The notes beneath the pieces were generated by a model, which was given only the letters and a program-made list of their open reading frames with translations, ran no database searches and was not told where the DNA came from. DNA of 20,000 nucleotides, from IMG/VR virus record IMGVR_UViG_3300047444_000174; one strand, written 5' to 3'. Position 1 is the stretch's first letter, and each line of letters begins with the position of its first letter. This stretch comes from an uncultured virus (IMG/VR IMGVR_UViG_3300047444_000174) (lineage: Duplodnaviria; Heunggongvirae; Uroviricota; Caudoviricetes). Below, piece after piece: positions 1,150 to 19,638 of this stretch. Both the position numbers and the translations under genes were made by a program.

Positions 1150-1310
1150 TTGCGCTCCTTCCAAAACCCAGTTAGCCCGTCTTTTAATTGCCGCTCTGCC
1201 GCTTCTCCGAATACCTTGCGCATGTCGGCCAGATACTCACGGCGCTGCGGTAATGTCCATTCGGCGATTTCTTCGATTACCTCGCGTAGCCGCGCCGAGT
1301 CGTGAATCAT
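1146..1310 (-). CDS. Small hypothetical protein, 54 aa (MIHDSARLREVIEEIAEWTLPQRREYLADMRKVFGEAAERQLKDGLTGFWKERK); not in ORF track
   Basis: Exactly fills the gap, with ATGA overlap at the primase stop and GTGA overlap at the VRR-NUC start. Confidence 0.75.
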   Translation of the reverse strand: MIHDSARLREVIEEIAEWTLPQRREYLADMRKVFGEAAERQLKDGLTGFWKERK

Positions 1311-2203
1311 TCATCGGCCCAGTCCGTCCCGACCTTCTCCGGAATGAATATCTCTGTCGTGAGTCCGCTTAATGCGAGGCGATTCGCAAGCGCGAAGGCT
1401 GCGCTCTGGCCGGTATAGTTGGCGTCGTTATCGCCAAAGACGATCACGTGCTTGACGCCTTCCGGCACTTCCCAATCGCGCATACCACCAGCGGAGATTG
1501 CGGCCCACGTCGGCACGTCGAATCGCACGGACGCCCGCAGCGCGGTTTCGATCCCTTCGGCAATCCCAAGGCACTCGTACACTTCAGTCAGGCGTATGGC
1601 GCCGGTTTTGATCGTGCCGGCCATGACCTTCTTCGGCTCGCCGACCGGGGCCTTGCCGCCGTTCCCATCCAGCCAGGTGCGATGCATGGTCGATGCCTTG
1701 CCGTCCGGCATCGTCACCGTGGCGAGCATCGCCGGGAATGAATGCGTTGCGTCATAGCGAAGATTCGGGTGATATCGAATCGCGCTCGAGACAGTCTCGA
1801 TGCCGGTTCGGCGGTTCAGATAGGCCCACACCGGATCGCCCTGGGTTACTGGCTTGGATTCGGTCCAGGCCCGCTTCAATGCCGCGCGCTTCTGCTCATC
1901 GCTGAACTCCTGGCGAGGACCGTCCTGTTTCGAGACACCCAGGACGCGCTCAACTTCGCGGGCAGCCTGCACAAATGACCAACCGTTGAGTTTCTGGATC
2001 AGCGCAAAGCCATCGCCGGCACCATCGTTCGAGCAAAACCACGTACCGCGCCCGTCTTTGTTGTCAAACCTCCAGCGGTCTTTCCCGCCGCATAGCGGGC
2101 AAGGACCGTGCTTCTTCGACAGGAACTCAGGAGCGATGCCCAGCGACGTCAGAATCGATTCCCAACGTCCCACGCACAGGTCGCCGATCTTTTCACTACG
2201 CAT
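1307..2203 (-). CDS. Primase: P4-alpha-type Zn ribbon + TOPRIM domain
   Basis: HGPCPLCGGKDRWRFD Zn ribbon; GIAEGIETAL and FGDND TOPRIM motifs. Confidence 0.9.
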   Translation of the reverse strand: MRSEKIGDLCVGRWESILTSLGIAPEFLSKKHGPCPLCGGKDRWRFDNKDGRGTWFCSNDGAGDGFALIQKLNGWSFVQAAREVERVLGVSKQDGPRQEFSDEQKRAALKRAWTESKPVTQGDPVWAYLNRRTGIETVSSAIRYHPNLRYDATHSFPAMLATVTMPDGKASTMHRTWLDGNGGKAPVGEPKKVMAGTIKTGAIRLTEVYECLGIAEGIETALRASVRFDVPTWAAISAGGMRDWEVPEGVKHVIVFGDNDANYTGQSAAFALANRLALSGLTTEIFIPEKVGTDWADE

Positions 2204-3851
2204 GCTTCATCCCCTTGGCGAAAGCGATGTTGCGGGACTGGATGAATTTCTTCGTTTCGGCGGACGGCTCACAAGCGAGGTGCGTCATGCTGTTCGGCCA
2301 CACGCCGTAGCGGTCGCGGTAGACGTGTGCAACGCGACCGTCCGACCATCCCTTCATCGACTGGTAGCCGAGCAGTTCGGAATAGAACTGCTGCTTTTCG
2401 GCCATCGTCGCTTTGACCTTCTTCGCGCCACGCTCCTGCTTGACGAGCTCGCCGTCTGCAGCGTGGATCGTGTTTTGTTTTTCCGGTGCGAAGCCGCATT
2501 GCGGGCACTTGTGCGCCGTCTTCATGAACGAGCATTTCCCGCAAGCTGTCGGCAGCTTTTCTTCTTTCTTCTTCGACGTCGATTGCTTTTTCGGCTTGCC
2601 GTCGTCCAGCTCGAGCGGCAGATCGTCAGTCGGGAAGCCTAGGTGTTTCACGGTGCCAGAGTGGTCAAGAATCAGAGCCCGCGTCTTGCCTTCAGACGGG
2701 CGCAATACGCGGCCCGCCATCTGCACGTAGCGGATCAGGCTTTTCGTCGGGCGGGCCAGAATCAGGGTTCGGCAGAAGGGCGCATCCCAGCCTTCGGCGA
2801 GCAGCGAAGCGTTGCTGATGATGGTCGTTTGACCGCTCTCAAAGCGTTTCAGGGCATCGCGGCGGGCGTCCGTGTCGTCGTAGCAATCGATGTGCTCCGC
2901 ACTTACGCCGGCAGCAAGGAACTGCTCGACGATGTGCTTGCTGTGGGCGATGTTGGATGCGAAGACGACCGTAGGCGTACCCTTCGCGAGGCGCATCCAG
3001 TGCGAGACGATATCGCCGATCAGTTCTGGCTTGTCGGTCGCGTTGCCGACGTCCATGTCCGAAAAGTCGAGTTCGCCGAACTTGTTGCGAACCTGCTTGA
3101 TGCCGGTCATGTCCGGTTCGGACGGCGCGTAGATATCGCAGTCGACCAGGAATCCTTCGTCGATCAGTTCGCGGATGCTCGACGCGACGACCATGCGTTC
3201 GAACAGCGGGCCGCCGAGCTTGTCGTAGACCTTGCCCAGACCTTTGGCGAAGGGCGACGCAGACAGGCCGATGACGGGCTTCCCGGCGAACGTTTCGATG
3301 ATGCCGCGGTATTCCTTCGAACCGGCGACACCGTGCGCCTCGTCGATGATGATGAAATCGACGTCGGGGATGCCGCGCTTCGCGATGGTCTGGATCGAGC
3401 AAACCAGCACGTGTTCATACTCGCGGCGGCTGTTTTGCCCCTGAATCACACCGTGCGAGATGCCGTACTTGTTGAAGGTGCGTGATGCTTGCTCGACGAG
3501 CTGGATGCGGTTAGCGAGGAACGCAACGCGCTTGCCCTTGAGCCGCGCACCCTTGACCAAGCCAACGGACAAGGCGGTCTTGCCGCAGCCGGTCGGGCCG
3601 TAGAGCATCTGGCGCAGGTAACCCTCTCCCAAGCCAAGGCGCAGGGCTTGAATCGCAGCGGCCTGATACGGGCGCAGTTCGAGTTCGGCCGCCGCTACAG
3701 TGGTAGTAGTAAGGTTAGTAGTTACTCCTTGGCTAGGTGTAGTTAATCCATTCCCTTCCCTTCCATTCCCTTCCGTCCATGAAGACTCAAAGATTGCTCC
3801 GTGAGTATCGTAGGAGTACTCATTGACCGCGTGATTAAAAAGAGCATTCAT
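2196..3851 (-). CDS. SF2 DEAD/DEAH-box helicase (RadD/YejH-like) with C-terminal Zn finger; start uncertain, may be fused to upstream Rep
   Basis: LRPYQ, GPTGCGKT (Walker A), IIIDEAH, SAS, QMAGRVLR, CGKC...CPQC. Confidence 0.92.
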   Translation of the reverse strand: MNALFNHAVNEYSYDTHGAIFESSWTEGNGREGNGLTTPSQGVTTNLTTTTVAAAELELRPYQAAAIQALRLGLGEGYLRQMLYGPTGCGKTALSVGLVKGARLKGKRVAFLANRIQLVEQASRTFNKYGISHGVIQGQNSRREYEHVLVCSIQTIAKRGIPDVDFIIIDEAHGVAGSKEYRGIIETFAGKPVIGLSASPFAKGLGKVYDKLGGPLFERMVVASSIRELIDEGFLVDCDIYAPSEPDMTGIKQVRNKFGELDFSDMDVGNATDKPELIGDIVSHWMRLAKGTPTVVFASNIAHSKHIVEQFLAAGVSAEHIDCYDDTDARRDALKRFESGQTTIISNASLLAEGWDAPFCRTLILARPTKSLIRYVQMAGRVLRPSEGKTRALILDHSGTVKHLGFPTDDLPLELDDGKPKKQSTSKKKEEKLPTACGKCSFMKTAHKCPQCGFAPEKQNTIHAADGELVKQERGAKKVKATMAEKQQFYSELLGYQSMKGWSDGRVAHVYRDRYGVWPNSMTHLACEPSAETKKFIQSRNIAFAKGMKHA

Positions 3852-3985
3852 TTCACTGAAATTCCGGTGTGGGGATCGCCGACTTAGAGGGGCGATTGAT
3901 GACTTGATGTTTCTTGAATCCGTGAATATGGAGAAAAATCTCTCCATCACTCACTGAGTACTCACTGAGCAATCCGTGAGTTAGC
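3748..3985. repeat. Putative replication origin: iteron-like repeats and purine-rich tract at the Rep/helicase junction
   Basis: CTCACTGAG-TA-CTCACTGAG (3950-3969), TCCGTGAG at 3798 and 3973, GAGTACTCA at 3814 and 3956, TCCATTCCCTTCC repeated within 3747-3773. Confidence 0.5.
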
Positions 3986-4185
3986 AACTCTTGAATGAGC
4001 TTGTCGCAGTCGAGCGAATCTGCCGGAAAAATCTGCATCTTCAGCTTCTTTGCCGAGCGCTGAAGATTGCCGTTGTCGTCTGCGAAATTCCAGCAACCGA
4101 TGAACAGCAAGCGCGCCCCGAACGACAACTCGACGATCTTCTCGTCAGTCCAAAAGTCCGGCTTGATCGTGCGGATGCGAGCCAC
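3853..4185 (-). CDS. Phage replication initiator N-terminal (wHTH) domain, 110 aa
   Basis: MARIRTIKPDFWTDEKI...ARLLFIGCWNFADDNG...FKKHQVINRPS, a typical N-terminus of lambdoid Rep/replisome organisers. Confidence 0.8.
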   Translation of the reverse strand: MARIRTIKPDFWTDEKIVELSFGARLLFIGCWNFADDNGNLQRSAKKLKMQIFPADSLDCDKLIQELLTHGLLSEYSVSDGEIFLHIHGFKKHQVINRPSKSAIPTPEFQ

Positions 4186-4460: not shown

Positions 4461-4813
4461 TAAGCCGCCCTCGCTGCCGCAAGTTGTTCCTCGAGTTGCC
4501 GGATCTTGGCGTCTTTCGACTCCACCAGATCACAGCCCGCATTCATTGCCTCGTACTGGACCGGAGCGCGGTTCCCGCACAGCCGCATGAGCGCCAGCCG
4601 CTTGTGAGTCGGGAACCCCGCCTGGCCCTGCATCATGCGAGAGAAATGCCCTTTGTCGATTGACAGTTCCTTGCTGATGTACTCGTGCGTGAATCGACTC
4701 AGTTGAATGCACAACCGGATCGCATCCAGCTCGTCGTCGCACATGTTCAAAAGCTCGACCGGAACGTTCTGAAGCTTCTTAGGCTCACCATGAACTGCCA
4801 ATTCGCGTTGCAT
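4460..4813 (-). CDS. CII-like HTH transcriptional regulator
   Basis: Directly downstream of cro; HTH-like THEYISKELSIDKGHFSRMMQG; C-terminal coiled segment; AAGGG RBS. Confidence 0.7.
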   Translation of the reverse strand: MQRELAVHGEPKKLQNVPVELLNMCDDELDAIRLCIQLSRFTHEYISKELSIDKGHFSRMMQGQAGFPTHKRLALMRLCGNRAPVQYEAMNAGCDLVESKDAKIRQLEEQLAAARAA

Positions 4814-4862
4814 TTGATTTCCCTTGTTGAGGGTTGACTGGAGTTGACGGTCCCTGATAAAC

Positions 4863-5299: not shown

Positions 5300-5328
5300 A
5301 CGATAGCATTTGCTCTCGCAAAGCGCAA
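5300..5328 (-). promoter_or_regulatory. PR promoter (-35 TTGCGC, 17 bp, -10 TATCGT)
   Basis: Sigma70-like boxes with 17-bp spacer, closely similar to PL; -10 ends 7 nt before the cro ATG. Confidence 0.7.
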
Positions 5329-5376
5329 GCACTTGCTCGCAAAACAATAGGATTTGCTATCACAGCAAATGCTAGT
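5302..5376. promoter_or_regulatory. OR operators (consensus GATAGCAnnTGCTATC)
   Basis: GATAGCATTTGCTCTC 5302-5317, GCAAGCACTTGCTCGC 5325-5340, AATAGGATTTGCTATC 5346-5361, CACAGCAAATGCTAGT 5361-5376. Confidence 0.75.
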
Positions 5377-5395
5377 TTTCGGGTTTAATTTGGCC

Positions 5396-6193
5396 ATGGA
5401 TATCCACGCACATCGCCGGAACAGGCTCCAAGAGCTTGTCGACAAAGAGGCAGACGGAACGGCCGCAGAATTTGCACGGAAACATAATCTGGACGCAACG
5501 CGGATCAGGCAGCTCTTAAGCGCTACCTATCGCAACGGAAGAGGCTTTGGAGAGGGGGCAGCAAGAAATCTCGAGACGGCACTCGGGCTTGACCACCCTT
5601 ACTTCGACTTGGGGCTTGAGAGCGCTATTGCCTCTCAGCATATTTCCAATATTTCCGATGCATCAATCAGCGCACTAAACACGGGCAACATTGGTCAATC
5701 AAAAAGCGCAGTCGCCGTTAGTCTGGATGAAGGAGACCTACCCAATCCAACATCCGATGAGTTCGCTTTCGTGCCCCAATTAGATATCGCCGCGGCCTGC
5801 GGCAACGGCCGGTTTGAAGACCATGTGGTAGTCAAGGGTGGAATGGCGTTCAAGCGCTCGAAGCTGCGCGAACTGGGCGTTCCAGAAAACGCCGCGAGAC
5901 TTATTGTCGCCGCCGGCGGGAGCATGTGGCCAAAGATTCAGGACGGACGTGACGTCCTCATAAATACCGCAGATATCGAGCCCGAGGATGGCAAGGTCTA
6001 CGCTATATGTATGCCGCATGATGGGCTCGTATTGAAGCGCCTTGTATGGGAATATCACCCGCAGGTCGGCGCGGAAGTTTGGGTCATCAAGAGCGACAAT
6101 CCGGACAAGACCACCTTCCCCGACAAGATTCTGCCGCCCGACGATCGGACGCGCATCGCTGGACGTGCGGTTTGGACGGACAGCGTGCTTTAG
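5396..6193 (+). CDS. cI: CI-like repressor with S24 autopeptidase domain
   Basis: N-terminal HTH (RRNRLQEL...GEGAARNLETALGL), AACG cleavage-site region, catalytic GGSMWP (Ser) and LKRL (Lys). Confidence 0.93.
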   Translation: MDIHAHRRNRLQELVDKEADGTAAEFARKHNLDATRIRQLLSATYRNGRGFGEGAARNLETALGLDHPYFDLGLESAIASQHISNISDASISALNTGNIGQSKSAVAVSLDEGDLPNPTSDEFAFVPQLDIAAACGNGRFEDHVVVKGGMAFKRSKLRELGVPENAARLIVAAGGSMWPKIQDGRDVLINTADIEPEDGKVYAICMPHDGLVLKRLVWEYHPQVGAEVWVIKSDNPDKTTFPDKILPPDDRTRIAGRAVWTDSVL

Positions 6194-6882: not shown

Positions 6883-6885
6883 TCG

Positions 6886-6909
6886 AAGCCCAGCCCCGCT
6901 GGGCTTTTT
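6886..6909 (+). terminator. Intrinsic terminator between convergent genes
   Basis: AAGCCCAGC-CCC-GCTGGGCTT-TTT. Confidence 0.75.
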
Positions 6910-7109
6910 CATTTCCGCCTCTGCGCGAACCCCTCCCTCCACAACGTAGCGCCGACTGACGTCAATAGCGCCAGGTCGTCTCCCTCGAACCTCTCCCAGT
7001 TCTCTGCCAGCCAGCCCGCGAAGCCTGCGCACGCCTCATCAAGCGGCACGTCAGCTCGGCCTTCGATGTTCAGCCGCTCGAAGATGGTGATTACGTCTGC
7101 TGGCGTCAT
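6909..7109 (-). CDS. Small acidic hypothetical protein, 66 aa
   Basis: AGGAG RBS, TAGACT -10-like box upstream; ends at the terminator. Confidence 0.7.
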   Translation of the reverse strand: MTPADVITIFERLNIEGRADVPLDEACAGFAGWLAENWERFEGDDLALLTSVGATLWREGFAQRRK

Positions 7110-7151
7110 ATCTAGCTCCTATCCAACTCCCAGTCTAGCCCCGTAGGCAGC

Positions 7152-7215
7152 GATAAAAAAATTTATCAACAAGCGATAGCTTTTGCTTGCGTTAAACGAG
7201 AGCGTTTGCTATTGT
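7152..7215 (+). promoter_or_regulatory. OL operators and PL promoter (-35 TTGCGT 7187-7192, -10 TATTGT 7210-7215)
   Basis: GATAGCTTTTGCTTGC 7175-7190 and GAGAGCGTTTGCTATT 7198-7213 match the OR consensus; weak GATAAAAAAATTTATC 7152-7167; 23-bp period as for OR1/OR2. Confidence 0.75.
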
Positions 7216-7266
7216 TCATCCATCGAAGCAAGCAACACCGCACCAACCACTAACCGGAGAGCGAGC

Positions 7267-7494
7267 ATGAGCCAGAACGCACGTACGCAGGGGATCGCAG
7301 CATTCAATGATGTAGCGAAGCCGGTGTACCAGAATCCGTACGCTTTCTCTGCAGACCCGAATTCCGACTATGAGCAGTTTCGCCTTGGATATTTCGTGGC
7401 GCGGCACGAAGGCCATCAAAGCGTTATCCAAAACATGCGCGGCGCGGAACTGCCAGCCGGATACATCAAAGGGTCGCAGCGTTACACCGCATAA
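7267..7494 (+). CDS. First PL gene, hypothetical 75 aa
   Basis: GGAG RBS; ATG about 50 nt after the PL -10. Confidence 0.7.
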   Translation: MSQNARTQGIAAFNDVAKPVYQNPYAFSADPNSDYEQFRLGYFVARHEGHQSVIQNMRGAELPAGYIKGSQRYTA

Positions 7495-7535
7495 AGCTCA
7501 AAACCGCCGCAGAGCACCGCGGCAACAGGAAGGAA

Positions 7536-7638
7536 GGTCGAAACCCGGGCCAAACCTAGTGCATGAGTGCACACGCTATAGGCGAGTACCTAACAGTACG
7601 CACCCGGGTCTGAGCGTAACGCGCTCACTGACGAGACC
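7536..7638 (+). ncRNA. Type II hammerhead ribozyme (predicted cleavage after C7610)
   Basis: GGTC(II)-GAAA-CCCGGG(III)...CCCGGG-TC|TGAGCG(I)-TAACG-CGCTCA-CTGACGA-GACC(II); all core nucleotides and three stems present. Confidence 0.88.
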
Positions 7639-7693
7639 GTGAATAACCGCAGTAGAGGAACACAGGCGCACGGCGTCGCCTGGTGGGGCAAGA

Positions 7694-7706
7694 GATCTTT
7701 AACAAC
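7694..7706 (+). promoter_or_regulatory. boxA-like (nutL-like) element
   Basis: GATCTTTAACAAC resembles boxA GCTCTTTAACA and directly precedes a long hairpin, as lambda nutL precedes its RNase III site. Confidence 0.6.
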
Positions 7707-8386
7707 GTAGTGGTTTGAGTTTGATCAGAGCTGGCGGCTTGTGTCCGTACGCGGAACATGACGAGCAGTTGGCCATGATAGTCGCCAGCCCTGATCACAT
7801 TCGAACCACTGCAACAGAAGGCATACCAGTAATGGCGGGGCCAACGCGCTACCCCGGAAAAGATCGGCGCCTATCAGTGATCCGCCTGGTCGACAGATTC
7901 GACTATAGAACGGATCGCTGATTGATAACCGCCGCACCTAGGCCGGAGCCAGCATAGCTGGGAGTAGTCGGATTGGTGCGGCAAAGCAGTTTTTCGTGAA
8001 TGGCGTTGTGCGGCGTGGAGTGACACGCACAGTAGGCGTAGAAGGCGTTGCCCGCTTGCGGCCAATGTGCATCGCATGCGGGGCGTTGGAGCCGAAGACA
8101 CCCGGGTGGAGCTTAAGTGCTTTGAAGCTGCGGGGCATACAGAGCTGGGCTGGTGACCCAGACACAGCGCCATTCACGAAGAGCTGCAGCATTGAGGCGA
8201 GAGCATTGAACTCCCTGCATAGCTGAGTATCTGCTGTAGCGAACCGCGAGACCGCGTTCTCGTGCAGTAACTCCGGCTCATAGGCTCCCTGCACAGTACC
8301 AGTGCTCTTTCTTGAATGCTGAAGCTTCTAGCGATTCTCCTTACGGTTGCCGATTCTCGCGAGTCGGTAGCGATAAGGGGAATTGC
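7707..8386 (+). ncRNA. Array of long stem-closed RNA modules in the PL leader
   Basis: Stems 7707-7812, 7873-7922, 7931-7982, 7986-8187, 8188-8320, 8331-8386; most mismatches are G-U on the + strand. Confidence 0.7.
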
Positions 8387-8438
8387 GCATCGGCGTATTG
8401 ACGCCTGTTAGTACAACGAATTGGATCAGGAGACTGAA

Positions 8439-11230: not shown

Positions 11231-11418
11231 CCCGCTACGACAACGCTCTTCACGTCATGGAGCTGCAAGGCGGCTCGTTCGTGAAGTCACTGGCCAACTG
11301 CTACCTCATGGCCGATCCATTCAACAAAGCAAAGCTGCGCGAAACGTTCGCCGGGTACTTCGATGTGTATGAGGCGAGGTTCGAGCAGTGGAAGGAACAA
11401 CATAAGGAGGCTGCGTGA
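11227..11418 (+). CDS. Small conserved phage protein (GGSFVKSLA...ADPFNKAKL..TF)
   Basis: GGAGG RBS; overlap-coupled on both sides. Confidence 0.75.
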   Translation: MTRYDNALHVMELQGGSFVKSLANCYLMADPFNKAKLRETFAGYFDVYEARFEQWKEQHKEAA

Positions 11419-11882
11419 GAGAAATCCCGCTTACGCGAGGCTTGGTGGCCTTGGTTGACGACGCGGATTATGAGGAATTGGCGAAGCACAAGTGGTTTTG
11501 TGATAGCCGCGGATACGTGGCGCGGAAGGTTCCCCATCCTCTCAAGCGCCAGGTAACCGAGCTAATGCATCGCGTAATTCTGGGCCTGGAATATGGCGAT
11601 CCTCGGCAAGGAGACCACAGGAATCGCAATCGACTGGACAATCAAAGGTCCAATCTTCGGCTTGCGAGCAATGGAGAAAACCAGCGCAATAAAGGCGACT
11701 ATGCAACAAACACATCGGGGGTTAGGGGCGTGTATTGGTACAAACCAACCCAGCGATGGAAGGCGCAAATTAATGTAGATGGAAAGAAAAAGCACCTTGG
11801 GTATTTCCAGTCCATTGATGACGCATCAGAGGCATATAAACAGGCTGTACGCCAACTGCATGGCGAATTTGGCGCCGTTTAG
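11415..11882 (+). CDS. HNH endonuclease with AP2 domain
   Basis: IPLTRG..ALVDD.DY, MHRVI, DHRNRNRLDNQRSNLR, NTSGVRGV...HLGYF...HGEF. Confidence 0.92.
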   Translation: MREIPLTRGLVALVDDADYEELAKHKWFCDSRGYVARKVPHPLKRQVTELMHRVILGLEYGDPRQGDHRNRNRLDNQRSNLRLASNGENQRNKGDYATNTSGVRGVYWYKPTQRWKAQINVDGKKKHLGYFQSIDDASEAYKQAVRQLHGEFGAV

Positions 11883-15939: not shown

Positions 15940-16311
15940 ATGCTCGTTTATCTTTGCGGTCCCATCAATGGTTGCACCGATGCCGAATGCAACGACTGGC
16001 GCTCGTATGCGAAAAGCCGCTTGTCCGACACGCTGGACCCGATGCGCCGCGACTACCGCGGACGCGAAGCGGAGTCCGTCAATGAAATAGTCGAACTAGA
16101 CAAGATCGATGTGCAGGAATGCGATGTCGTAATCGCGAACTGCCCGAAACCCAGCGTCGGCACCAGCATGGAAGTGTTCTATGCATGGGAATTGGGCAAG
16201 AAAATTGCCGCAATCGCACCAGAGCCGGTGAGCCCATGGCTGCGCTATCACAGCACCCGGGTGTTCGGAACGATCAAAGAAGCAATTGACTGGATCGAGG
16301 CGCTTGCATGA
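15940..16311 (+). CDS. Nucleoside 2-deoxyribosyltransferase / nucleotide N-glycosidase family protein
   Basis: VYLCGPI, DPMRR, D...V.ECDVV, SVGTSMEVFYAWELGK (catalytic Glu); AAGGAG RBS. Confidence 0.85.
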   Translation: MLVYLCGPINGCTDAECNDWRSYAKSRLSDTLDPMRRDYRGREAESVNEIVELDKIDVQECDVVIANCPKPSVGTSMEVFYAWELGKKIAAIAPEPVSPWLRYHSTRVFGTIKEAIDWIEALA

Positions 16312-17066
16312 TTCCGTATCATGGGTTGCCAATCACGCCAGCAACTGCCGCCGCGCGAGCCATCTCCGGCGGGCATGCGTTCATCTCGTTTCGCCACCCG
16401 GACCAATTATCGCTTGCTCTTGATATTGCTCAGTCGTTCGCGGTGGACAACGGAGCTTTTTCAGCATGGCGAAGCGGCAACCCTGTTACGGACTGGAGTC
16501 GGTATTACGAGTGGGTGGCAGAGCTTCACCGCTACCCACCGTTCGATTTTGCAGTTATTCCCGATGTCATCGACGGGGACGAGGCCGCAAACGATGCGCT
16601 TATCACCGAATGGCCGTGGCGCGAACACGCTCCTTGGGTGGGCGCCCCGGTGTGGCACTTACATGAAAGCCTTGAACGCCTGCAACGACTGGCGATGGAA
16701 TGGCCGCGCATCTGTCTCGGCAGTTCTGGGGAATTCGCTACGGTCGGGTCGACATCTTGGTACATGCGAATGGCGGAGGCAATGGATGTCATTTGTGATC
16801 GAGACGGACGGCCAGTGTGCAAGATTCATGGTTTGCGCATGCTGAACCCGGACATCTTCACCCGCTTCCCCTTCGCCAGCGTCGATAGCACCAACATCGG
16901 CCAGAACATCGGAATCGACTCGGCATGGCGCGGCACTTATCCGCCGGCGACGAAAGAGTCACGCGCGATGGTGATGCGCGAGCGGATCGAGAAAGAGCAG
17001 TCGCCGATCTTTTGGGATCGATCCGCTGCGCCGATTCAGGCCGGGCTAGACCTGTTCGCCGCCTAA
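16308..17066 (+). CDS. tRNA-guanine transglycosylase-fold protein, DpdA-like (deazapurine DNA modification)
   Basis: DNGAFSAW, VIPDVI, PVWH, CLGSSG, IHGL, SVDST motifs of the TGT/DpdA barrel. Confidence 0.68.
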   Translation: MIPYHGLPITPATAAARAISGGHAFISFRHPDQLSLALDIAQSFAVDNGAFSAWRSGNPVTDWSRYYEWVAELHRYPPFDFAVIPDVIDGDEAANDALITEWPWREHAPWVGAPVWHLHESLERLQRLAMEWPRICLGSSGEFATVGSTSWYMRMAEAMDVICDRDGRPVCKIHGLRMLNPDIFTRFPFASVDSTNIGQNIGIDSAWRGTYPPATKESRAMVMRERIEKEQSPIFWDRSAAPIQAGLDLFAA

Positions 17067-17113: not shown

Positions 17114-17596
17114 ATGAGCAATGAAGACGCAGTGCCGAAAGACGATCAACAGCAAACATTCGGCCCAAATTCTGAACCGCACGGCTGGGCGGTTATGGAA
17201 GTGCTCACACGCGATATGTACGGCGCGCTTCGGAGTCGCACGACGATTCGCGCGAAAGATGGCTTCCTCGACATGGCAATTGAAGAATACGTCGGGACGC
17301 AGGGTCGTGCAAAGCGTACAGACGTGCGTCTGCACGGCGAAGCGCTCGAAGTATTGCGCTCGATTCTCACCCGGCCGGTCGCCGCACCCGTCGCCCCCAC
17401 CGCCGAGCAGGCAGAGGGAGTGCTGGTGGATGCGGATCGGTATCAGTGGCTGCGCCGCCGCGCCGTGATGGTCGATTACAGCGACGAGACCGTTACCAAG
17501 TTGACGCTTTTCAAAAACGAAGGCCCGACAGGCGAATTCCTCGACGACTGGATCGACGGAGAATGTGCTGCTTCATCTACCGGGGAGCAGGCATGA
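17114..17596 (+). CDS. Hypothetical mosaic phage protein (DADRYQWLR motif)
   Basis: AAGGAG RBS; ATGA overlap downstream. Confidence 0.75.
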   Translation: MSNEDAVPKDDQQQTFGPNSEPHGWAVMEVLTRDMYGALRSRTTIRAKDGFLDMAIEEYVGTQGRAKRTDVRLHGEALEVLRSILTRPVAAPVAPTAEQAEGVLVDADRYQWLRRRAVMVDYSDETVTKLTLFKNEGPTGEFLDDWIDGECAASSTGEQA

Positions 17597-18117
17597 ACTC
17601 ACACGTGTGCGCGTTCTATGCAAGCAAGTTGGCATATGACCCACTGACCGGCACTGTGATCCGCAAGGATGGACGCTTCGCAGGAGTGCCAGTAACGAGC
17701 CGAACCTACAAGGGTTACGGTTCATGGAATAGCGGCGGTAAAACCCGCGTGCTCCATCGGGTCGTTTGGGCAATCTTTTACGGCAATGAATCGAGCCTGT
17801 CCATCGACCATATCAACGGTGACAAGTTCGACAACCGCATCGAGAACCTGCGCGAGTGCACGAATGCCCAGAACAATCAAAACAAGGGTATCGGCGCGAA
17901 GAACACGACCGGCTACAAAGGCGTCACGTTTTCTTCGCATGAGCAGAAATTCGTATCGTTCGTGAACGTCAATGGCAAGCCAAAACGAACTGGCTATTTC
18001 GACACGCCAGAAGAAGCCGCACACGCCTACAACAAGGCGGCGATCAAACACCACGGCGAATTCGCTCGGCTGAATGTGCCCGGCCTTCCTGCAAACCTGA
18101 CAGCGAGACAATCATGA
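17593..18117 (+). CDS. HNH endonuclease with AP2 domain
   Basis: YDPLTG, HRVVW, IDHINGDKFDNRIENLR, NTTGYKGV, AAHAYNKAA..HHGEFARLN. Confidence 0.92.
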   Translation: MNSHVCAFYASKLAYDPLTGTVIRKDGRFAGVPVTSRTYKGYGSWNSGGKTRVLHRVVWAIFYGNESSLSIDHINGDKFDNRIENLRECTNAQNNQNKGIGAKNTTGYKGVTFSSHEQKFVSFVNVNGKPKRTGYFDTPEEAAHAYNKAAIKHHGEFARLNVPGLPANLTARQS

Positions 18118-19139
18118 GCAACAAAGACGACGAACTGCTATCTGCAAGCAAACCTGCCGCGCTCGAAGGGTGGAAGATGGTGCCGGTTGAGCCGACGCCC
18201 GAGATGATTCTAAAAGGCGGAATAATCACCCTTGGGATGCCGCTCAACGAACGCTCCGTCAAATGCATCTATGCCGCTATGTTGTCCGTTTCGCCAGACG
18301 CTGCCGAGCCAGCGCAATCGGGGGAGCGGGAAGCGTCAGCCTACGAGACGCTTTTACAAGCTCTTGGCTATCCGTGGCTTCCGTGTCCCATCTGCAAAGG
18401 AACAGAAGGCTGCGACCATCCGTACCCTGAACGTGCGCGCGCCGCGCTATCCGCCCCGCAACCATCCCAGCCCGTGGAGGATGGGGAGACTTCGTCGGAC
18501 GCGGCGCGGATCGAGCGCTTGCGCAAAGGGCTGTTCGAAGCCCGCGACGCGATGCGCGTCATGAGCAATTGGGTGAAGAAGTCAGACCCTGCTGGCCATA
18601 GCTGGGCCGCACAGATGGTTGATCGTGCGAATGACATTTTGAGTCACGCGCCGACTGCTGCCGTGGTGCTGGACGATAAGCGGGCGGCATGGAACACCGC
18701 GTACGAGAAAGGCTACGCGGATGGATGGAGCAAAGGCCCATATGCCCGCGCCGCATCCCCGCAAGCCACCGTGTACTCGCTGTTCTCGTCATCCGATCGG
18801 CGCAATTTCGGACACCTTTCACCACAAGAGTTCGTCAACGCGGTCATCGAGGCAGTGCGGGCGCAAGCCACGGCGACGCAGCCCTGTATCGCGCCTGGCT
18901 GTTATCAGTGGGATGGCACCGATTCGTGCACGTGCCAGAAGGCCACGGCGACGCAGCCAGCACAGACGGACGATCGTAGCGCGATTCTCGAAGAAGCCGC
19001 AAAGGTATGCGACGCACGCGAGGACTGGTACCTGGAAGATGACTGTCGCGGTCAAGCTTGCGCAGCGGCCGGTTGCGCAAAAGATATTCGCGCCCTCCTG
19101 ACCGCCGCGCAGCCAGCAAGCGGAGCCGACCATGAGTGA
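18114..19139 (+). CDS. Ead/Ea22-like mosaic phage protein
   Basis: GWKMVPVEPTPEM, Ala/Pro/Gln linkers, Cys modules, AILEEAAKVC...IRAL. Confidence 0.8.
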   Translation: MSNKDDELLSASKPAALEGWKMVPVEPTPEMILKGGIITLGMPLNERSVKCIYAAMLSVSPDAAEPAQSGEREASAYETLLQALGYPWLPCPICKGTEGCDHPYPERARAALSAPQPSQPVEDGETSSDAARIERLRKGLFEARDAMRVMSNWVKKSDPAGHSWAAQMVDRANDILSHAPTAAVVLDDKRAAWNTAYEKGYADGWSKGPYARAASPQATVYSLFSSSDRRNFGHLSPQEFVNAVIEAVRAQATATQPCIAPGCYQWDGTDSCTCQKATATQPAQTDDRSAILEEAAKVCDAREDWYLEDDCRGQACAAAGCAKDIRALLTAAQPASGADHE

Positions 19140-19638
19140 GCGCGAACAGTTCGAGGCGGAAATTCGGCTCCGCATCGCCTACGATCCATCGACAGGAAAG
19201 TTGTATTGGAAGAAAAGCCCAAATCGAAACTTGCCGATAGGAAGAGAGATCGGGAAGCCCAACTCTTGGGGGCACCTCAGTTTTGGATTCCGCGGCAGGA
19301 CATGGATGGCCCATCGCGTCGCATGGCTTCTGCACTACGGGTCTTGGCCAGAGAATCAGATTGATCACATCAACGGAATCAAGGCCGACAATCGCATCGA
19401 AAACCTGAGAGACGTCAGCCAGAGCATCAATCTGCAAAATCAGCGCGCTCCACATCGAAACAACAAGTCTGGATTCTTGGGCGTGACGCTTAGGGGGGAT
19501 GGCCGTCCCAACCCGTACAGGGCATGCATAAAGATCAACGGGAAGAATATTAATCTGGGGAGCTTCTCTAGTGCGGAAGAGGCACACGCCGTCTACCTCG
19601 AATCGAAGCGAAAGATTCATGCAGGAGGAATGCTGTGA
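19132..19638 (+). CDS. HNH endonuclease with AP2 domain
   Basis: YDPSTG, AHRVAW, IDHINGIKADNRIENLR, NKSGFLGV, LGSF...EEAH. Confidence 0.92.
   Translation: MSEREQFEAEIRLRIAYDPSTGKLYWKKSPNRNLPIGREIGKPNSWGHLSFGFRGRTWMAHRVAWLLHYGSWPENQIDHINGIKADNRIENLRDVSQSINLQNQRAPHRNNKSGFLGVTLRGDGRPNPYRACIKINGKNINLGSFSSAEEAHAVYLESKRKIHAGGML

Follow-up and report, generated by a model that had tools for sequence, protein, structure and literature searches.

A probable type II hammerhead ribozyme of Burkholderia and Paraburkholderia temperate phages, set between the first early-left gene and a boxA-like site

We analysed 20,000 nt of the uncultured virus IMGVR_UViG_3300047444_000174 (hereafter the window; coordinates refer to the + strand unless marked), in which the early genes of a temperate phage, sampled in a rhizosphere metagenome, are located. 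With a probability of about 0.75, positions 7536–7638 encode a functional type II hammerhead ribozyme that belongs to a small family of Burkholderia and Paraburkholderia temperate phages and that would cut the early-left RNA, thereby uncoupling its first gene from an antitermination region downstream. Phage and prophage hammerheads of this type, located between genes, are already known, and one member of the Burkholderia-phage subfamily has been assayed (Perreault et al. 2011, PMC3088659). The window ribozyme is a further member, unusual mainly for a 53-nt insert in stem III and for its place directly before a likely antitermination signal.

Reading of the sequence against the core criteria of Perreault et al. 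(PMC3088659) showed that 7536–7638 contains all consensus bases, with C3 U4 G5 A6 N7 G8 A9 G12 A13 A14 A15.1 U16.1 H17 each matched. The elements follow the type II order, namely a stem II strand, GAAA, the stem III hairpin, UC, the stem I hairpin, CUGACGA and the second stem II strand, so that loops close stems I and III and stem II is open (Table 1). The letters and coordinates of these parts agree throughout with those of the original prediction, which had been made from the sequence alone. Every stem is perfect and the core-adjacent pairs are the standard ones (U7611–A7627, C7539–G7635 and A7543–U7609). The minimum-energy fold of the RNA 7530–7645 is the hammerhead three-way junction (−38.3 kcal/mol; z = −2.17; equalled by 5 of 200 shuffles), to which folding contributes an extra stem I pair, U7617·G7621. 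In local contexts the three stems account for 0.37–0.48 of the ensemble, comparable to the 0.43–0.50 obtained for a close relative, locus L024.

A chance resemblance in GC-rich phage DNA can be regarded as refuted. In its favour, no significant Rfam hit was obtained and CTGANGA alone occurs in the window about as often as expected (11 found, 11.6 expected), which means that the signal resides in the whole arrangement. A custom descriptor scan of both strands identified 7536–7638 as the sole type II hammerhead in the window, and 1000 first-order Markov random 20-kb windows yielded one relaxed match (stems of at least 4, 3 and 5 pairs) and no strict one, none being as good as that observed. The covariation of the family and the score of a model built without the window, both described below, argue against chance as well.

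The family comprises 20 distinct relatives (21 sequences with the window) from Burkholderia and Paraburkholderia phages, prophages and metagenomes. The published hammerhead of Burkholderia phage Bcep176 was recovered by a permissive scan at L003 12168–12237, and a second phage hammerhead, that of BcepC6B, was reached via a weak blastn hit. A search pattern derived from these two and the window matched two loci in GTDB genomes (Burkholderia aenigmatica and Paraburkholderia antibiotica), 12 in IMG/VR and three in metagenomes, while L022, L024, L033 and L036 were obtained by routes independent of the ribozyme. Contigs from two other rhizosphere samples (X2 and X3) carry an identical ribozyme, insert included. 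Close DNA patterns of the window's form found no match in IMG/VR, nor did a long-insert family pattern in the same collection; a purine/pyrimidine-degenerate long-insert pattern found none in GTDB genomes or Joint Genome Institute (JGI) metagenomes, and megablast of the whole window found none among INPHARED phages. The only blastn match of 7000–8300 was the neighbouring small gene in seven Burkholderia phages, and no ribozyme lies beside it in L001 or L002. BcepC6B and accession numbers were not found in the accessible part of the supplements to PMC3088659.

Alignment of 19 sequences (A1; 18 pairs, 331 pair cells) supports the predicted stems. Pairing is retained in 95.8% of the cells, compared with 22–56% in slid registers, double changes occur in 13 of the 18 pairs, and none of 500 shuffles reached the observed value on any of five measures; core conservation and stem covariation, whose lack in homologous loci the original prediction had named as refuting it, are both present. 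Covariation affects five of seven pairs in stem III, six of seven in stem I and, in stem II, pairs 1–105 (GC in 16 sequences, AU in three) and 2–104 (GC in 15, AU in three, GU in one). L024, approximately 95% identical to the window over 7600–8020, differs in stem I by a compensatory G–C to U–A double change; covariation, including this pair, indicates selection on the RNA fold rather than on DNA identity alone. When the window was left out and the 20 relatives alone were used to build a covariance model (R1), the model matched the window once, at exactly 7536–7638, over model positions 1–70 of 70 (65.2 bits; E = 1.3e-18). A family-wide search of 151 genomes, with 33 candidates scored per genome, gave matches at E up to 0.001 in at least four of them, two of which (G002 and G081) showed the full core by eye. 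The family also includes an experimentally active member, since the Bcep176 hammerhead cleaves itself in vitro with a k_obs (the rate constant observed) below 0.1 per min despite an A6C change, to which its authors attribute the slowness (PMC3088659); the window ribozyme has the standard A6. The claim of a complete type II hammerhead with its expected cut after C7610 is supported, and covariation and the leave-one-out model place it in a family with an active member.

Several observations weigh against a functional ribozyme or its proposed role. Most relatives came from a pattern that fixes the core and parts of stems I and II, and consequently only the free positions count as a test. Covariation is seen at these positions, which comprise the two outer pairs in stem II, the central part of stem I and all of stem III apart from two pairs. 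Scanning the window with Rfam, including its hammerhead models (clan CL00010), at gathering cut-offs, a check that had been proposed for the prediction, returned 0 hits. At a lax E-value the best match was a partial and mis-registered Hammerhead_3 at 17.4 bits against a cut-off of 48.5, with Hammerhead_II, which we take to be RF02276, scoring lower. The loci of 17 relatives likewise gave no gathering hit, and an Rfam scan of three phage loci returned nothing; a RAGATH-16 match on L024 (E = 0.48) was rejected as noise. Relatives with a minimal stem III fail too, and the miss is therefore a blind spot of the models rather than counter-evidence: current Rfam models miss the whole Burkholderia-phage hammerhead subfamily. 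A 20-mer from the downstream region occurs in 13 IMG/VR loci, and only four of them have the ribozyme, which is accordingly dispensable for that region.

The remaining difficulties concern folding and activity. Stem II has just 4 bp, and wide contexts reduce the hammerhead fold to 0.002–0.2 of the ensemble, the lowest value applying to 7440–7720. In a 281-nt fold, the stem II 5' strand pairs elsewhere, GAAGGUC 7533–7539 with the start of the boxA-like site GAUCUUU 7694–7700 instead of GACC, although this predicted pairing may be noise, as the overall 281-nt fold is no better than shuffles (z = 0.26). No pseudoknot of at least four pairs between loop I and the 3' tail could be drawn by eye, loop UAACG and tail GUGAAUAA giving at most two to three pairs, and inspection of the family table by eye revealed no loop I/tail covariation. 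Such a pseudoknot is a feature of the majority of type II hammerheads (PMC3088659), and cleavage of the window ribozyme at cellular Mg2+ could therefore be slow. It is on these grounds that the element might be considered structurally intact and effectively inactive in the cell, acting only as a stable RNA structure such as a pause or a protective hairpin cluster. Removal of tertiary contacts lowers hammerhead rates by orders of magnitude and the tested Bcep176 relative is slow (both PMC3088659), while the insert and a relic hairpin upstream could favour misfolds. However, the slowness of Bcep176 was put down to the A6C change, absent from the window; conservation of all 11 core bases would be unexpected for a mere hairpin cluster; and co-transcriptional folding would favour the local fold. 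Furthermore, all 19 aligned sequences have the same U and middle A in loop I, and each of the 21 family members has an A just before stem II, which suggests, from sequence conservation, an alternative tertiary contact. We therefore judge inactivity in the cell improbable.

Table 1. Features of the window in and around the hammerhead ribozyme.
Feature	Position	Strand	Basis or remark
Stem II 5' strand, GGUC	7536–7539	+	Sequence and fold; A1 pairs 1–105 and 2–104 covary
Core G12 A13 A14 and A15.1 (GAAA)	7540–7543	+	Invariant in 19/19 aligned sequences
Stem III 5' arm, A15.1 and CCCGGG	7543–7549	+	Sequence, fold, covariation
53-nt insert at tip of stem III	7550–7602	+	Three small hairpins predicted
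Stem III 3' arm, CCCGGG and U16.1	7603–7609	+	Sequence, fold, covariation
C17	7610	+	Predicted cut 7610/7611, placed by hammerhead consensus (core rule in PMC3088659)
Stem I hairpin, UGAGCG/CGCUCA, loop UAACG	7611–7627 (arms 7611–7616 and 7622–7627)	+	Sequence, fold, covariation
Core C3 U4 G5 A6 C7 G8 A9 (CUGACGA)	7628–7634	+	C, U, G and final GA invariant in family
Stem II 3' strand, GACC	7635–7638	+	Sequence, fold, covariation
Remnant of an older hammerhead's 5' half, decayed: stem II strand, AAAA in place of GAAA, stem III hairpin GCCGC..GCGGC	7495–7524	+	Alignment to L033
82-nt lineage-specific segment: working stem II strand, GAAA, stem III 5' arm and 53-nt insert	7525–7606	+	Absent from L033 and L024
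Hairpin CAGGCG..CGCCUG between ribozyme and boxA-like site	7664–7683	+	Conserved in L024, L006, L033
boxA-like site GATCTTTAACAA	7694–7705	+	Core TCTTTAACAA at 7696–7705, the only one in the window at ≤1 mismatch
Structured, apparently non-coding RNA	7707–8190	+	Fold, covariation; outside the ribozyme; would be headed by the cut
Components of this RNA: long hairpin; covarying block; long-range helix	7707–7813; 7816–8005; 7986–8010 with 8163–8187	+	Fold, covariation
Replication genes	1307–4185	−	Gene annotation
cI-like S24 repressor gene (followed by a membrane-protein gene)	5354–6193	+	Gene annotation
Bidirectional terminator	6885–6907	both	After the membrane-protein gene
Two operator-like repeats, ATAGC-N-TTTGCTAT kind	7173–7190, 7198–7213	+	Motif recurrence
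First open reading frame (ORF) of early-left transcript, 75 amino acids	7267–7494	+	ATG at 7267 after GGAGAG

The placement of the ribozyme in an early-left (PL) transcript, as originally predicted, is supported by the operator-like repeats just upstream of the 75-amino-acid ORF and by the gene order on the + strand, where the ribozyme is followed by approximately 730 nt without codon signal, small genes, and RecT, exonuclease and HNH genes. The same operator motif recurs three times between the cI-like and cro-like genes (5301–5316, 5345–5360 and 5357–5372; repeat families D2, I1, I3 and I6). Judged from this motif, 7173–7213 likely holds the early-left (PL-like) promoter under repressor control; a consensus promoter scan found no sigma-70 site there, so that the promoter as such is an inference. 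The 75-amino-acid protein has no Pfam or PHROG hit, and a search of 5.8 billion proteins returned only itself and one fragment of 56 amino acids. In L024 a different first gene replaces this ORF (4585–4830, − strand); its product of 81 amino acids has a Lys/Arg-rich start and no PHROG hit. Its start presumably resembles that of N-type antiterminators. Further along the early-left operon of the window lie three HNH endonuclease genes, all assigned to phrog_99 (11415–11882, 17446–18117 and 19132–19638, + strand), alongside a gene similar to queuine tRNA-ribosyltransferases (16308–17066). No transfer RNA genes were found in the window.

We propose that the ribozyme would be transcribed with the repressor-controlled PL-like operon, straight after its first small gene. 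The three-way junction would form once the stem II 3' strand leaves the polymerase, and the RNA would then be cut between C7610 and U7611. Hammerhead cleavage yields a 2',3'-cyclic phosphate upstream and a 5'-OH downstream (PMC10250234); from this chemistry and the position of the ribozyme, the cut would place the first gene and the boxA region on separate RNAs, the latter with a 5'-OH end, as the original prediction had suggested. The upstream product would be the message of the 75-amino-acid gene, ending in the cyclic phosphate after the relic hairpin at 7505–7523 and the long stem III, whose cluster of hairpins would stabilise it; the insert would stay on this upstream RNA and at most protect its 3' end. 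The downstream product would carry its 5'-OH at the first base of the stem I hairpin, with the boxA-like site about 60 nt on, followed by the structured RNA and the early-left genes, and this hairpin would protect the downstream RNA or insulate the boxA region. Both products would thus have structured, nuclease-resistant ends in the style of ribozyme insulators. In evolutionary terms, a cassette of gene plus ribozyme would have been inserted ahead of the boxA region, and the cut, by uncoupling the inserted first gene from antitermination, would restore a short, hairpin-headed 5' end to the boxA RNA.

The history of the locus can be traced in part from the sequence immediately downstream of the first ORF. 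The 7495–7524 relic is identical to the L033 hammerhead 5' half at 26 of 30 positions (local alignment score 40, against a maximum of 25 in 2000 shuffles), and in it the essential G12 has changed to A. Homology of both L033 and L024 to the window resumes at 7607, and among the 39 collected sequences the match to the 82-nt segment 7525–7606 is limited to the AGGTCGAAAC core. Given that this segment brings its own 5' half while the older half decayed beside it, the present ribozyme is a hybrid of an acquired 5' half and a resident 3' half.

These rearrangements also lend themselves to a different account of persistence, in which the ribozyme is a hitch-hiking cassette boundary. It would then survive mainly as a conserved junction at which the gene between early promoter and boxA region is swapped, and less because cleavage benefits the phage. 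The window and L024 cease to be homologous at 7286 and are so again from 7607, a point within the ribozyme, with a different gene in between, and contigs from other samples, read at their joined ends, connect 7262 to 7607, 7265 to 7646 and 7217 to 7646. The upstream genes vary among loci, and in 15 of the 21 the ribozyme directly follows their stop codon, whose end falls between 8 nt ahead of the hammerhead and 1 nt within it. In L028, L031, L038 and L034, which by eye have no gene between promoter and boxA, the ribozyme is absent, and the decayed older half at 7495–7524 also fits this account. Against a mere boundary stand the intact core, the covarying stems and the compensatory change relative to the 95%-identical L024, and the presence of a working 5' half after the older one had decayed argues that function was maintained. 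We consider this account rather unlikely as the main cause of persistence, and it is compatible with, not exclusive of, a ribozyme that cleaves the early-left RNA.

The 53-nt insert was originally described as an unusual feature of stem III and as a possible regulatory domain, and the comparative data do not support the latter. A long stem III is nothing out of the ordinary among the relatives, in which the region ranges from the tetraloop stem ACCGC-UCCG-GCGGU (L024, L006 and L036) through loops of 18–27 nt to 45–53 nt of unrelated sequence (L019 and L021, the latter with 53 nt). In the minimum-energy fold of stem III alone, two of the three originally proposed helices are present, GUGCA/UGCAC (7559–7563/7568–7572) and GUAC/GUAC (7586–7589/7596–7599), while CCTA/TAGG is replaced by CGCU/GGCG (7574–7577/7581–7584). 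This branching is a prediction from one sequence, the fold being marginal against shuffles (z = −1.93; 12 of 200 as good). That the insert is a sensor or regulatory domain switching the ribozyme on or off could appeal to these three hairpins, predicted on their own, and to the general speculation of Perreault et al. that some hammerheads are allosterically regulated (PMC3088659). However, searches of IMG/VR, GTDB genomes, JGI metagenomes and the 39 collected sequences returned nothing homologous to the insert, and hence neither conservation nor covariation supports such a role; its place is at the tip of stem III, remote from the core; and the nearest relatives, L006 and L024 (flanks of the latter approximately 95% identical), have only the tetraloop stem at its site. 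A switching function is thus very unlikely. We read the insert instead as a lineage-specific expansion of a length-tolerant stem III, which at most gives the upstream message some extra structure at its 3' end. The 8-mer CCTAACAG, common with L024, prompted the idea that the insert contains a second hammerhead relic, which was rejected as lying within chance for the comparison by our own estimate.

The boxA named in the original prediction was recovered as a boxA-like site, TCTTTAACAA, 58 nt after the ribozyme. The longer GATCTTTAACAA is what we take to resemble the rrn/nut boxA consensus. In comparison with a lambda-type nut site, a hairpin (Table 1) precedes the boxA-like site, and the first-gene products of the window and L024 match no family. 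The 8-mer TCTTTAAC, present in 12 copies in 344 kb on both strands, lies 35–60 nt 3' of the hammerhead in seven of the 21 distinct loci (the window, L024, L022, L005, L014, L033 and L036), although three of these seven were found via the downstream region, which biases the count; ribozyme-only finds give three of 17, plus L006, where TCTTTAAC lies at +264, beyond an extra small gene. Several loci with a gene between promoter and boxA carry a different conserved element in the ribozyme's place. In L006 this alternative element (approximately 2790–2835, − strand), also seen in L029, L035, L037 and L027, directly follows the stop codon and consists of CUGUUCGUAGCG, a variable covarying hairpin and CAGUGCGAAUAGCAC; the last could form a 4-bp hairpin with a GAAUA loop, in which L027 changes UUCG..CGAA to UCC..GGA in step. 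No Rfam family matches the element, which could stand in for the ribozyme as a processing site or as a hairpin bound by a protein.

Downstream of the boxA-like site, 7707–8438 (approximately 730 nt) shows no codon-position signal. Its + strand has a very stable predicted fold (−374.5 kcal/mol; z = −8.75, from 20 shuffles), compared with −316 kcal/mol and z = −5.0 on the − strand. When block 7811–8020 was compared with six IMG/VR relatives, compensatory changes were found in 21 of 48 predicted pairs, together with conserved G·U pairs. Rfam gave no match for the region at E up to 5. The phages thus seem to possess, 3' of boxA, a structured RNA that has not been described before; that it may be part of the antitermination apparatus is a guess. 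Its hairpin at 7707–7813, about 107 nt long and nearly perfect, gave a spurious microRNA-precursor hit (26.8 bits; E = 0.075) and is an optional insertion, since L032–L035 run from boxA straight to the next block. Minus-strand ORFs within 7874–8294 were rejected as genes, having neither a codon-position GC signal nor a family hit. The ORF at 7938–8294 (− strand, 118 amino acids) has one database relative, P0004 (182 amino acids, a JGI 'hypothetical protein'), in which a central block of 80 residues is 90% identical while the ends differ; as only this block is shared, a conserved RNA or DNA block fits better than a protein, and the call of a gene here, on top of the conserved RNA block, is probably spurious. 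The 24 sequencing runs listed are nearly all of DNA from rhizosphere metagenomes. One RNA run holds 4% of the sampled words and yields a single contig over 7826–7992 with 13 differences, which derives from a relative and is uninformative on RNA ends or on this phage.

From this arrangement it is possible, and we suggest it tentatively, that hammerhead and antitermination region work together, the ribozyme trimming the nascent transcript at the stop codon of any gene inserted between the early promoter and the module of boxA and structured RNA. Other relatives have a different conserved hairpin at that point, and after the cut boxA would lie approximately 60 nt from the 5' end, as it does in relatives without an inserted gene. 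If such a partnership is true, the element would be a natural transcript insulator, which could serve the assembly or persistence of a termination-resistant polymerase complex or keep the ribosomes of the upstream message, Rho or 5'-end-dependent RNases away. Our search of the open literature, with most subscription journals outside its scope, found no paper linking a natural hammerhead to boxA or antitermination.

Among known systems, the Bcep176 hammerhead is closely similar: it is of type II, has the same stem II 5' strand followed by GAAAC, closes its 6-bp stem I with a U..G loop of 5 nt, comes immediately behind a stop codon in a temperate Burkholderia phage's early-left operon, and belongs to the same covarying family. 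It differs in its A6C core, its 18-nt stem III loop and the lack of a boxA within 100 nt, where the window has the standard core, the 53-nt insert and a boxA-like site at +58. The pseudoknot-containing type II hammerheads of Perreault et al. (PMC3088659) share the permutation, the core and the phage or prophage setting beside genes; the window ribozyme and its relatives differ in having no pseudoknot of at least four pairs, and both the window and the 17 relatives' loci fall below the Rfam hammerhead cut-offs. Clustered prophage hammerheads, also from that study, similarly occupy intergenic sites in a long phage transcript, each next to the end of an ORF, and their proposed role is to cut polycistronic RNA into separate messages (PMC3088659), whereas the 20-kb window has one ribozyme only. 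Many relatives precede the ribosome-binding site of the next gene, while the window ribozyme precedes a boxA-like site and approximately 800 nt of structured non-coding RNA. In synthetic biology, engineered ribozyme insulators place a hammerhead after a promoter or gene, giving the RNA a defined 5' end. The likeness is that the cut removes variable upstream RNA and leaves a hairpin-headed RNA with a 5'-OH (PMC10250234, where a related use also appears); the window ribozyme is natural and of a different type, and its role as an insulator would be an extension of this analogy.

Collectively, the type II hammerheads reported from phages and prophages in 2011 gain one comparison-confirmed member through this analysis, which also reveals a fixed placement in several divergent phages, right after the stop codon of a swappable first gene and 35–60 nt before a boxA-like site. 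The locus further shows that these ribozymes evolve by exchange of halves, with a decayed older half preserved beside the working one. If the link to boxA is functional, a hammerhead of a bacterial virus would have a specific role open to experiment, which this class of ribozyme still largely lacks.

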